Shown here: positions 30,774 to 33,122 of the stretch, one piece after another
Position numbering within the stretch: the first letter of the stretch is position 1
Layout: each line of letters opens with the position of its first letter
Assembly: GCA_945904955.1 (NCBI GenBank)
Contig: CAMDPO010000011.1
Coordinates: 259 to 64,258, forward strand
DNA: 64,000 nucleotides
Direction: 5' to 3'
Origin: Rhizobium sp. Q54
GTDB lineage: Bacteria; Pseudomonadota; Alphaproteobacteria; UBA2966; CAIVPW01
The notes under the pieces: generated by a model
Database searches by the model: none
What the model was told of the DNA's origin: nothing
What the model saw: only the letters and a program-made list of their open reading frames with translations
Translations under genes and position numbers: made by a program

Positions 30774-30869
30774 GGAGCTACGACCCGTTCCTTCCCAGCA
30801 GGCGCAGCAGGACTAGCGGGAGGTTTGGCGCGCAGGCGTACCCCGCCCAGAAGCGCGTAGAATGCACGC

Positions 30870-31652
30870 ATGTGCAGGGTTTTCTCGTACGCCTCCGTAC
30901 TCTTCGTTGCGCTGATCGCGGCGTCCGCCTTCGCGCAGGATGCCGCCACGCCGCCGCTCGTGCGTGCGCCGGATGCCGCCCGTCCCGTTGGCGATCTGCG
31001 CGAGCTTGCGGTAGGGAAGCACGCGCGCGAACTTCCGCTCGAAGGCTACTACGCCTTCGCCTGCGGCTCGAACGGCGGCACGCCCTTGGAGCAGCTCGAC
31101 GACTGGACTGGATTCGCCACCTGCGCGCGCGATCGCGCCACCGACCTCTACGAAGTCTACGTCGAGTACGATGACGAGGGCGAATACGCCGCGCGCATGC
31201 TGCTCGAGTTGTTCGGCGAGCAGGACGGCCGCCTCGGCCTGCGCAAGTATTACGGCACCAAGGTCGCCGGCCACCCGGTCGTGCTCTCGGTGCTGTTCGA
31301 CGAACGCGGCACCGCCCAGGCGATCCGCGCCGTCACCGACCAGCGCGCCGACCTCGACTACCGCCGCAACGCCTACCTGCTGCGCGTGCCCCTGATGAAT
31401 GCCTTCGGCGCCGAAGGGTGGGGCTGCCAGAATCCGCCGCTAGCGAACGGCGAAACGCCCATCGGTGAGTTCTTCGTGAAGATGCGCTGCGAGAAGATCG
31501 CTCCCAGCGGCCGCCGCATGGTGGTCGAGGCGCACCTCTACCGGAAGCCAGGCCAGACCGGCTACGACCGCACCGGCACCACGCTCGAGGGCGACTTCTT
31601 CAGCCAGGGCCGCTGGGAGATTTGGAACCCGGAATACCGGCCCGCGCCCTAG
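30870..31652 (+). CDS. hypothetical secreted protein (260 aa, 4 Cys)
   Basis: Signal peptide MCRVFSYASVLFVALIAASAFA. No recognisable domain. Codon usage fits the host. Confidence 0.45.
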   Translation: MCRVFSYASVLFVALIAASAFAQDAATPPLVRAPDAARPVGDLRELAVGKHARELPLEGYYAFACGSNGGTPLEQLDDWTGFATCARDRATDLYEVYVEYDDEGEYAARMLLELFGEQDGRLGLRKYYGTKVAGHPVVLSVLFDERGTAQAIRAVTDQRADLDYRRNAYLLRVPLMNAFGAEGWGCQNPPLANGETPIGEFFVKMRCEKIAPSGRRMVVEAHLYRKPGQTGYDRTGTTLEGDFFSQGRWEIWNPEYRPAP

Positions 31653-31656
31653 ACCC

Positions 31657-31672
31657 GCGCGGCGAGAGCGTC
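31657..31672. repeat. 16-bp direct repeat GCGCGGCGAGAGCGTC (left copy) flanking a low-GC cassette
   Basis: Exact second copy at 32579-32594. Confidence 0.6.
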
Positions 31673-31818
31673 AGCGGGGGATTCACGAGGCGCGTGGTCC
31701 GCGAGAATTGCGCCACGGACAACTCCGACTTCATCGCCCATCGAGTTTAACAAACTGCGGGCTACGAGTAATCTGCGTCCTACTGTGAACTCCAGTTTCG
31801 GACCGTCGAGGAATTCAG

Positions 31819-32097
31819 ATGGACGTGACGAATGCCGTAGATGCCGCGAAGACTTGGTTCAGGGCGACGATGAAAGACGAGAAAATTGAAAATCTCGGCC
31901 TCGAAGAGGTTGAGTTCAACCCTGTGGATCGCGTCTGGCAGATAACTCTGGGCTTTAGCCGACCGTGGAACAGCGTCCGCGACGCAGTCACTACGATCAC
32001 CGGGGAGGCACTCCCCAAGCGGACCTATCGGGTGATCACGCTGCAGGACCATGACGCAAAGGTTCTCGCGATGAAGCGTCGCGAGGCAGCAGAGTAA
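31819..32097 (+). CDS. hypothetical 92-aa protein (putative cognate partner/antitoxin of downstream PIN protein)
   Basis: Lower-GC codon usage. TAA stop directly abuts the GTG start of the PIN gene. Confidence 0.4.
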   Translation: MDVTNAVDAAKTWFRATMKDEKIENLGLEEVEFNPVDRVWQITLGFSRPWNSVRDAVTTITGEALPKRTYRVITLQDHDAKVLAMKRREAAE

Positions 32098-32574
32098 GTG
32101 TCGAAGGTCGTCGCCCTCGACGCCAATCTCGTCGTACTGCTCGTGGTTGGCCTCGCCAACCCGGCGTGGATATCCACCCACAAGCGCCTTCGAGCGTACG
32201 GCACACGAGACTACGATCTCTTGGTGCGACTACTGCAGAACGCCCGAGAAGTAGTGGTAACCCCCAGCGTCCTGACGGAAGCGTCCAACCTGGTCTCCCA
32301 AATCGAAGGCGACCGCAGGACGAAGGTCATGAAAGAGTTCCGCGCCTTCATTGGGAGGACGAAAGAGCTATTCCAGGAAAGCGCGTCAGTTTCGTTAAGA
32401 AAAGAGTTCGTCCGCTTGGGATTGTGCGACTGCGCCCTTCTTGAGTTGAGCAAGGACGACACGGTGGTCCTTTCTGCAGATCTCGATCTGTATTTGGCGG
32501 CCAGCCGCGCCGGGTACACTGCGGTCAACTTTACTCATGCGAGAGTTGAAGCTGGAATTCTGGACCGACCTTAG
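32098..32574 (+). CDS. PIN domain-containing protein (VapC-like putative ribonuclease)
   Basis: Conserved acidic positions consistent with a PIN fold (ALDANLVV D8; TPSVLTEASN; CDCALLE; SADLDL). 158 aa. Lower GC than surroundings. Confidence 0.5.
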   Translation: MSKVVALDANLVVLLVVGLANPAWISTHKRLRAYGTRDYDLLVRLLQNAREVVVTPSVLTEASNLVSQIEGDRRTKVMKEFRAFIGRTKELFQESASVSLRKEFVRLGLCDCALLELSKDDTVVLSADLDLYLAASRAGYTAVNFTHARVEAGILDRP

Positions 32575-33122
32575 CCAAGCGCGGCGAGAGCGTCGTCCAG
32601 AACGGCGACCAGGCGCGGATCGTCCGGAGTGACATCGGGCGCGAAGCGCGCCACCGCGGCGCCGTCGCGGCCGACCACGAACTTTTCGAAGTTCCACAGG
32701 ACGTCCGATGCCGAGGCGGGACCGAGGCCGTGTCCGCTCAGCTGCTCGCGCAGCTTGCCGCCGCCCTCGTGCTGCGGCCGCGCGGCGATCATCGCGTCGT
32801 ACAGCGGGTGGCGGTCGGGCCCGACGACCGTGATCTTCTTGAACATCGGAAACTCGACGCCGTAGTTGATGCTGCAGAAGGCAGCGATTTCCGACTCGGT
32901 GCCCGGCTCCTGGCGGCCGAAATCATTCGCCGGAAACCCGAGGATCTCGAGTCCGCGTCCGCGCTTCTCGACATAGAGCCGCTGCAGCGCCTCGTACTGC
33001 GGCGTCAGTCCGCACTTCGAGGCGACGTTGACGACGAGCAGGACTTTGCCGCGGTACTCGCCAAGGGTCGCCGCGCGCCCGTCGATGCGGGCGACGGGGA
33101 TCGAATAAAGGCTGCTGGTCAT
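32571..33122 (-). CDS. glutathione peroxidase
   Basis: Catalytic Cys motif (LLVVNVASKCGLTPQY), FPANDFGRQEPG, WNFEKF. 183 aa. Confidence 0.85.
   Translation of the reverse strand: MTSSLYSIPVARIDGRAATLGEYRGKVLLVVNVASKCGLTPQYEALQRLYVEKRGRGLEILGFPANDFGRQEPGTESEIAAFCSINYGVEFPMFKKITVVGPDRHPLYDAMIAARPQHEGGGKLREQLSGHGLGPASASDVLWNFEKFVVGRDGAAVARFAPDVTPDDPRLVAVLDDALAALG
32579..32594. repeat. 16-bp direct repeat GCGCGGCGAGAGCGTC (right copy, inside gpx 3' end)
   Basis: Exact match to 31657-31672. Confidence 0.6.

Follow-up and report, generated by a model that had tools for sequence, protein, structure and literature searches.

A PIN-fold gene pair at the 3' end of a glutathione peroxidase gene: apparent insertion with duplication of the target sequence

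Results

Structure of the locus

We analyzed a stretch of 64,000 nucleotides from Rhizobium sp. Q54 (GTDB lineage Bacteria; Pseudomonadota; Alphaproteobacteria; UBA2966; CAIVPW01; GenBank assembly GCA_945904955.1, contig CAMDPO010000011.1, positions 259 to 64,258 of the forward strand), which is referred to here, at its full length, as the window. The subject of the analysis is a module of two abutting genes, encoding a 92-aa protein and a 158-aa PIN-fold protein, that lies between a 260-aa gene and the 3' end of the glutathione peroxidase gene (gpx) and is bracketed by a 16-bp direct repeat. An original prediction, made from the sequence without database searches, had described a low-GC cassette between perfect repeats and had proposed a target-site duplication or a site-specific insertion. 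The features of the locus are listed below (positions are those of the window).

30870..31652, plus strand: 260-aa gene, left host flank; open reading frame (ORF), function unassigned
31647..31672 (exact, 31657-31672), no strand assigned: left repeat copy, the displaced original gpx 3' end; reads DALAARV-stop on the minus strand
31657..32578, no strand assigned: block absent from relatives; gap in the collinear locus L009
31673..31747, plus strand: left end of the insert, a 25-codon open frame ending in TAA; translation SGGFTRRVVRENCATDNSDFIAHRV; 63% GC
31748..31818, plus strand: untranslated leader with the presumed promoter of the module; 51% GC; GAGGAA located 7 nt ahead of the ATG
31819..32097, plus strand: 92-aa partner gene (presumed antitoxin); ORF, stop TAA
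32098..32574, plus strand: 158-aa PIN-fold gene (presumed nuclease toxin); ORF, GTG start directly after the TAA
32569..32594 (exact, 32579-32594), no strand assigned: right repeat copy, live gpx 3' end; seen in the sequence
32571..33122, minus strand: gpx, glutathione peroxidase, target gene, right host flank; PF00255, E = 1.4e-35
Expected empty-site junction: CCCTAGACCC-16-mer-GTCCAGAAC
Expected circle junction: CCTTAGCCAA-16-mer-AGCGGGGG

The 16-mer, GCGCGGCGAGAGCGTC, was present in exactly two perfect copies in the window (31657-31672 and 32579-32594), as originally predicted. The left copy starts 4 nt past the TAG stop of the 260-aa gene, and the right copy sits within the last codons of gpx, 4 nt from the stop of the PIN gene. 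When up to 2 mismatches were allowed, the window contained 7 matches (0.9 expected), the other five being scattered GC-rich sequence. The repeat could be extended leftward to 26 nt at 85% identity (4 mismatches; 31647-31672 and 32569-32594; spacing, 922), with CCCTAGACCC preceding the 16-mer in the left copy and CCTTAGCCAA preceding it in the right copy. A minus-strand stop codon occurs at the same position inside both copies of this 26-nt repeat. As a null, upstream flanks were paired with downstream flanks from unrelated loci 1,500 times, and no exact match longer than 13 nt arose. Among 107 fetched loci, the exact 16-mer was restricted to contigs of the same organism, and the same window structure had been assembled independently in 7 metagenome samples.

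The insert between the two exact copies (31673-32578) is 906 bp long, or 922 bp (31657-32578) if one repeat copy is included. Its G+C content averages 57%, versus 68% for both flanks (52 to 63% inside; 65 to 73% outside), and the two ORFs abut as TAA then GTG; both properties were as described in the original prediction, and so was the lack of a transposase. The insert consists of the two ORFs and encodes neither a transposase nor an integrase (the search for recombinase genes did not extend to the remainder of the 64-kb window). No terminal inverted repeats were found at its ends, and its cargo includes no methyltransferase or restriction enzyme. An integron gene cassette was rejected on two grounds: the insert has no attC-like hairpin, its noncoding part showing no significant structure (z = -0.11), and the right repeat follows the PIN stop after only 4 nt. 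In the leader region there was no sigma-70 consensus match and no unusual hairpin, and a scan for promoter and terminator consensus sequences was empty. The 25-codon frame at the left end of the insert had no match in the window or in the fetched loci; it may have formed the end of a gene that once lay upstream of the module, as judged by analogy with the hyuA tail in locus L083 (see below). The 260-aa protein had no Pfam or NCBIfam match.

Empty sites in relatives and the direction of change

The contig of a metagenome-assembled genome (MAG), L009, was collinear with the window at approximately 90% DNA identity over 8.7 kb (the orthologue of the 260-aa protein being 87% identical), and its sole large gap relative to the window corresponded exactly to 31657-32578. 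In L009, gpx and the 260-aa gene are convergent with overlapping stops (CCTTAGG), and there is a single repeat-like copy, GCGCGGCGAGgGCGTC. The CCTTAG of the window repeat region is also present at the empty site. The empty arrangement was found in three other contigs as well, i.e., L098 (gpx 90% identical; close to L009), L099 (86%), and L100 (86%), each with one 16-mer-like copy and no module, and in these the tails of the orthologues of the 260-aa gene abut gpx directly. Overall, the gpx homologues were 79 to 90% identical, and the 260-aa orthologues in L009 to L011 were 77 to 87% identical. The expectation in the original prediction that relatives would have one repeat copy and gpx next to the 260-aa gene was thus borne out, and the 16-mer proved to be gpx coding sequence, not a repetitive extragenic palindromic (REP) element.

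The gpx products of relatives end in ...DALAARA or ...DALAAPA. The live window gpx ends in ...DALAALG-stop, its last two codons (LG) and its stop coming from insert-side DNA that overlaps the stop of the PIN gene. The left repeat copy reads DALAARV-stop, like the gpx ends of the relatives, indicating that this copy is the stranded original gpx tail. Given the three related lineages that are devoid of the block, its foreign-looking composition, and the stranded tail, insertion in the window lineage is the parsimonious direction of change. At the level of sequence comparison, these data demonstrate that a 906-bp block was inserted and that the target sequence was duplicated. No empty site was detected within the population, all seven of the contigs that encode an identical 260-aa protein carrying the module. 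The closest relatives of the PIN protein, P0003 and P0004, lie in other contexts, not beside gpx. The last 100 nt of gpx were 84% identical to L009, versus approximately 90% elsewhere, which is not decisive.

Two more-distant relatives of the 260-aa gene (L010:3475-3760 and L011:4768-5047) have neither the module nor an adjoining gpx. In L010, the 260-aa gene runs straight to a gene for a Urate_ox_N-type membrane protein, and in L011 it runs to unrelated sequence; the junction between the 260-aa gene and gpx is thus a variable spot in the wider group. A second nearby indel was also observed: L009 (3430-4009, compared with window 30785-30935) contains approximately 430 bp of extra sequence between a pyrroloquinoline quinone (PQQ)-dehydrogenase gene and the 260-aa gene.

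The PIN-fold protein and its 92-aa partner

The AlphaFold (AF2) model of the 158-aa protein had a mean predicted local distance difference test (pLDDT) score of 95.7. In a Foldseek search of the PDB, the top-ranked structures (1o4w, 2fe1, and 1v8o) were PIN-domain proteins, and the remainder of the list was dominated by PIN proteins, including AF0591, PAE0151, PAE2754, Mycobacterium tuberculosis VapC20, and several VapBC complexes (F-plasmid, Rickettsia, and Salmonella). The target-normalized template modeling (TM) scores of these named matches were approximately 0.62 to 0.70. In an alignment of 55 homologues, four acidic residues (D8, E61 in a TEASN motif, D111, and D128) were invariant. Sub-threshold matches to the PIN and PIN_3 families were obtained for 6 and 3 of the 55 family members, respectively (best E values, 0.0037 and 0.0025), and a PIN-family sequence-profile search against PDB sequences returned no real match, the fold being seen by structure search only. 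On the basis of the structural matches and the active-site residues, the model confirms the PIN fold that had been predicted for this protein, despite its lack of curated family membership.

The 92-aa partner had been called unrecognised, and our searches agreed: it had no match in any library tried (Pfam, NCBIfam, and PADLOC). In its model (pLDDT, 89), a single helix at the N terminus packs against an antiparallel sheet of four strands. The family is characterized by a sharply conserved, invariant motif, NLGLEE...W.IT.GFSRPW...R. A profile search of 1.84 billion representative proteins yielded 2,966 clusters (defined at 50% identity) at E <= 0.001, of which 1,131 remained at E <= 1e-10. Among the 150 best matches listed, almost all were stand-alone proteins of 90 to 100 residues.

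The two genes are tightly coupled. Among 80 metagenomic loci that were found with the PIN profile, 77 had a partner homologue located 0 to 53 nt upstream of the PIN gene or overlapping it by <=4 nt. The pairing is retained on cyanobacterial plasmids at 30 to 36% identity (hhalign probability, 98.3%), these distant homologues being the only cases of plasmid carriage, and no phage-borne copy was present in the collection searched. Two such plasmid loci (L096 and L097, 1-5390; NZ_CP046156.1 and NC_019742.1) have the pair between DUF499 and DUF1156 genes; in L096, the pair also adjoins a DUF5615 PIN-like/DUF433 pair and a macro-domain gene, giving the region the look of a defense island. No third gene was conserved after the PIN gene; the large ORFs that follow it in L074, L087, and L092 are mutually unrelated. 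In L092 (4526-7831; also L093), a metagenomic contig of 5.2 Mb, a 1101-aa ORF with a GGGKTH (P-loop-like) motif and no Pfam match starts 25 nt after the pair; in a second copy of this region from the same sample, a DDE transposase is inserted upstream.

The layout of the pair resembles that of VapBC: two abutting or overlapping genes form an operon, the small partner precedes the candidate toxin, and the latter has a PIN fold and four conserved acidic residues. Since a small partner, tight coupling, and a PIN nuclease in second position constitute a VapBC-type layout, the most likely role of the pair is that of a type II toxin-antitoxin (addiction) system resembling VapBC, the fold of its antitoxin being unrecognised. 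In contrast to VapBC, the PIN protein of the window falls below the threshold of every Pfam PIN and NCBIfam VapC model (PF01850 and its relatives), and the 92-aa partner has none of the DNA-binding domains of antitoxins (RHH, AbrB, HTH, or Phd).

Scars at other insertions of the module family

To assess other members of the family, we compared the upstream flank with the downstream flank at each of 69 loci (approximately 55 lineages) and scored their best local match without gaps, with 400 mismatched pairings as a null (top score, 15). Five lineages scored above all null values, i.e., the window (16), L083 (25), L030 (23), L017 (19), and the L014/L016/L019 group (18). The exact repeat blocks in these five lineages were 16, 16, 17, 18, and 18 bp long, and the repeat sequence was different in each. 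The full repeats ranged from 16 to approximately 170 bp (31 nt in L083, 45 nt in L017, and approximately 170 bp at approximately 80% identity in L030). In three of the four lineages other than the window, the repeat was derived from a neighboring gene or region: the last 13 codons of ilvC, the first 10 codons of hyuB, or the region upstream of a cyclase gene. The lineages lacking such scars may represent older insertions, vertical inheritance, or formation without duplication.

In L017, the repeat corresponds to the last 13 codons of ilvC (ketol-acid reductoisomerase). The live ilvC ends in WIAKNKLVDKNKN-stop, and the stranded copy, located past the stop of the PIN gene, has the sequence RIAKNKLVDKAKN-stop. 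Outside the exact 16-mer, the copies differ at seven codons, and in six of these the change is synonymous or replaces one stop with another. Because the differences are mostly synonymous, the two copies are orthologous coding segments of two lineages, not the products of an in-place duplication followed by decay. The GC3 (i.e., G+C content at third codon positions) profile of this ilvC was flat. In L048, a relative, a homologous module follows ilvC at the corresponding position, with no duplication and a different downstream region, i.e., a donor-type arrangement.

The repeat in L083 consists of the first 31 nt of hyuB with 2 mismatches, and the ATG of its stranded left copy shares nucleotides with the stop of an upstream oxidoreductase gene (TGATG). 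Just inside the left copy, the insert contains approximately 32 nt encoding SGLRYIELIR-stop, the C terminus of hyuA. Three lineages (L036, L062, and L028) have the donor-type order hyuA-module-hyuB. The hyuA remnant and the existence of these lineages together indicate that the module left a hyuA/hyuB context with approximately 30 nt of each neighbor and landed at a hyuB that had no hyuA beside it.

The repeat-bounded insert of L019 contains 100 codons of the 3' end of murG; a homologous module beside a full-length murG, with a single diverged copy of the 18-mer, was found in L104, and two close relatives of L019 (L018 and L025) had the left 18-mer copy only. Taken together, these loci add sequence evidence, beyond the published insertions discussed below, that one repeat copy and some of the insert ends probably derive from orthologous genes of the previous host.

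Most of the module contexts were housekeeping genes. Scans of the repeat-flanked sister loci for tRNAs and Rfam families detected a tRNA nearby in L081 only and no Rfam matches. In L081 (2398-2480 and 3486-3509), a tRNA-Met gene adjoins the module, on the far side of which there is an imperfect 24-nt copy of the tRNA 3' end; this geometry does not fit simple integration at a tRNA 3' end. In another pair of loci (L037:2298-2984 and L053:44-730), a 687-bp module core was 99% identical between unrelated flanks, L053 being truncated inside both ORFs; this core may be an assembly chimera or the product of gene conversion between modules and was not used as evidence. Given that most of the sister loci are metagenomic contigs, chimeric assembly is possible for individual cases, whereas the structure of the window is backed by seven samples.

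Discussion

A homology-guided route of insertion

With moderate confidence, we favor the reading that a horizontally acquired gene pair, likely a toxin-antitoxin module, entered gpx within its last codons by a homology-guided process and without a recombinase of its own. The toxin-antitoxin function, the recombination route, and the role of post-segregational killing are inferred. The entry point would have been the place where gpx and the convergent 260-aa gene shared overlapping stops. Incoming DNA would have recombined with the chromosome where the two shared a short identical segment, the 3' end of gpx, and this homology would be a portion of a neighboring host gene carried over from the previous host. 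Two routes can be envisaged. In the first, a small circle (0.85 to 1.2 kb) would integrate by a single, Campbell-type crossover in the longest identical block. In the second, a linear fragment would be held by a homologous anchor on one side and joined illegitimately on the other, inside the anchor region. Either route would give ragged insert boundaries and a direct repeat, with the live gene receiving a donor-type end and the recipient end being left stranded. In the window, the original gpx tail would then have been stranded on the left, and the tail supplied by the insert would have kept gpx intact. If the module is addictive, transient recipients would be selected to keep it, and rare integrations might thereby be enriched.

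The sister loci modify what had originally been proposed for this locus. Insertion with a duplicated target held; the family-wide evidence speaks against a transposase-type duplication of fixed length and against a single att core, given that the repeats vary in sequence and length and derive from neighboring genes. The lack of conserved ends, inverted repeats, and a fixed length argues against target duplication by a transposase, and the difference in repeat cores and targets from one insertion to the next argues against a single site-specific recombinase.

Several observations weigh against the homology-guided toxin-antitoxin reading. As to the route, there is no circular form of the module on record, and no donor with the module beside gpx was found among 95 loci. 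The GC3 profile along gpx is flat, with no imported patch at the 3' end, where one was looked for. Beyond the exact 16-mer, the two window copies match at only 6 of 10 nt, so that a plain 16-bp target duplication is possible for the window. The longest exact match expected by chance between 1 kb of DNA and a 5-Mb genome is about 16 to 17 nt (our own calculation); chance microhomology is therefore possible for the window as well. In addition, repeats were seen in only about 5 of roughly 55 lineages (approximately 1 in 10). As to the function, the 158-aa protein had no match at threshold in Pfam, NCBIfam, or PADLOC, and the model of the 92-aa protein had no PDB match below an E value of 0.01 and no RHH, AbrB, HTH, or Phd-like module. 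Finally, in a Rhodospirillaceae MAG (L007:3722-3985; also L008), an in-frame TAG interrupts the partner gene at the codon of the invariant W50, and the PIN gene looks intact with its catalytic residues kept, which would be odd for an indispensable antitoxin; readthrough of the stop, a silent PIN gene, or a partner that is not needed there would each account for this.

Other explanations

The pair may not be an addiction module. It could be a phage-defense or stress effector composed of a PIN nuclease and a sensor or regulator, its insertion being unrelated to post-segregational killing, and we give this view a minor but appreciable chance. The partner is unusually conserved for an antitoxin and has no DNA-binding fold. 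The same view would accommodate the gene neighborhoods of the cyanobacterial plasmid homologues, the GGGKTH protein that follows the pair in L092, and the intact PIN gene beside a disrupted partner in L007. It is opposed by the lack of a PADLOC match, of a phage-borne copy in the collection searched, and of a conserved third gene, by the mostly housekeeping contexts, and by the tight antitoxin-then-toxin layout, which is typical of type II toxin-antitoxin systems.

It is unlikely that the repeats are the attL and attR sites of a tyrosine or serine recombinase acting in trans, with the block being an integrase-less remnant (similar to a cis-mobilizable element [CIME]) or a satellite that targets the gpx 3' end. 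The geometry is that of classical integrative elements, i.e., a repeat taken from the 3' end of the target and a gene end replaced by element DNA, and the tRNA-Met locus L081 may be cited on the same side. The block itself contains no integrase (the rest of the 64-kb window and the genome were not searched for one). Moreover, the repeat varies in sequence, length, and target (ilvC 3' end, hyuB 5' end, and the region upstream of a cyclase gene), so that a new specificity would be needed each time, and the inserts carry ragged fragments of former neighbors where defined ends would be expected.

A true target-site duplication is very unlikely in our judgment. Here, a staggered cut of approximately 16 bp would have been made by an unknown transposase acting in trans or by the PIN nuclease, and the module would be a minimal self-inserting element. 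The clustering of the exact blocks at 16 to 18 bp in five lineages is what such a process would produce. The block encodes no other enzyme, and PIN-like domains include DNA nucleases, both of which count in its favor. It does not account for the lack of terminal inverted repeats or conserved termini, for the imperfect extension of repeats to 31, 45, and approximately 170 nt, for the mostly synonymous differences between the L017 copies (which look like orthologous segments of two lineages), or for the ragged boundaries with hyuA and murG fragments. A length of 16 to 17 nt is close to the calculated chance maximum for 1 kb of DNA against a 5-Mb genome and fits capture by short homology equally well. 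We hold a specific form of this idea to be a long shot, namely, that the pair is an autonomous, selfish, nuclease-only element in which PIN would cut the chromosome at gene ends and so drive integration, and the 92-aa protein would guide or regulate it, with duplications of 16 to 18 bp as the result. If true, this would be a mobile element that needs neither a transposase nor an integrase and doubles as an addiction module.

The reverse history, in which the module was ancestral at the site and the relatives lost it by recombination between the repeat copies, is scarcely credible. Recombination between 16-bp repeats would yield exactly the empty site that was observed. Against this, three lineages of decreasing relatedness are all devoid of the module, as are L010 and L011, though their gene order differs; the G+C content of the insert is 11 points below that of its flanks, and the module family is patchy across phyla. 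The stranded gpx tail makes sense only as a by-product of insertion, and insertion would thus be needed in any case.

Coincidence or a dispersed REP-like repeat has practically no chance of being correct: short GC-rich matches are commoner in a GC-rich genome than in random sequence, but the 16-mer has two exact copies in 64 kb and, among the 107 loci, occurs in the same organism only, the null maximum is 13 nt, and the repeat boundaries match the 922-bp indel to the base.

Candidates set aside

Beyond the integron cassette dealt with above, the following known classes were tried and rejected. A DNA transposon or insertion sequence was excluded on account of the absence of a transposase ORF and of inverted repeats and because duplications range from 16 to approximately 170 nt. 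An integrase-mediated element or CIME was rejected because the insertions share no common att core and the block has no integrase (an integrase acting in trans was not searched for). A REP or chance repeat was ruled out by copy number, the flank null, the indel boundaries, and the locus survey.

Relation to known systems

The closest parallel is the insertion of restriction-modification (RM) systems accompanied by a long duplication of the target. Passages of Furuta, Abe and Kobayashi (2010; PMC2853133) describe RM-system inserts flanked by long target duplications, with 30 bp as the operational cutoff. In the cases described there, the target's start or stop codon often falls within the repeats, so that the gene stays intact (PMC2853133). 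The window insertion is alike in that a small, putatively addictive module found in one genome is missing from a related one, the repeat being single at the empty site; there is no transposase, integrase, or inverted repeat; and the G+C content of the insert is below that of the genome. It is unlike them in cargo (a PIN toxin-antitoxin-like pair instead of an RM system) and in repeat length (16 to 26 bp, below the 30-bp cutoff, which is reached at L083, L017, and L030). Because the repeat of the window is shorter than 30 bp and the cargo is not an RM system, we do not assign the insertion to that class, though it would work in the same way. A limited literature search found no description of such an insertion for toxin-antitoxin cassettes; the toxin-antitoxin texts that were checked tie long target duplication to RM systems only or cite it in their references.

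There is also a likeness to CIMEs and to integrative elements at gene 3' ends, in which the repeat originates in the 3' end of the target and the gene receives a replacement end from the element. The window block differs from these in having no integrase, and the insertions differ in having no common att core, variable repeat lengths, and ragged boundaries.

A further process with a bearing on the second of the two routes is homology-facilitated illegitimate recombination in natural transformation, which de Vries and Wackernagel are said to have described in 2002 and in which a one-sided homologous anchor is combined with an illegitimate join. This process has reportedly been shown experimentally with longer anchors, usually with a deletion of recipient DNA. 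It would explain the donor-type gene ends, the fragments of neighbors that were carried along, and the variable lengths of the duplications.

Implications

Toxin-antitoxin modules are patchily distributed and are called "mobile," and the chromosomal entry of a bare two-gene cassette without a vehicle has rarely been documented. The locus analyzed here is a clean pair of filled and empty sites, and its sister modules carry scraps of former neighbors and land beside the orthologous gene in a new host. These observations amount to sequence evidence for the recombinase-free, homology-guided spread of an addiction-type module, which was argued earlier mainly for RM systems. The 92-aa family (approximately 3,000 representative clusters) is large, unannotated, and tightly coupled to a PIN clade that family libraries have missed. 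The family and this clade may represent a new antitoxin fold or a defense pair of a new kind.

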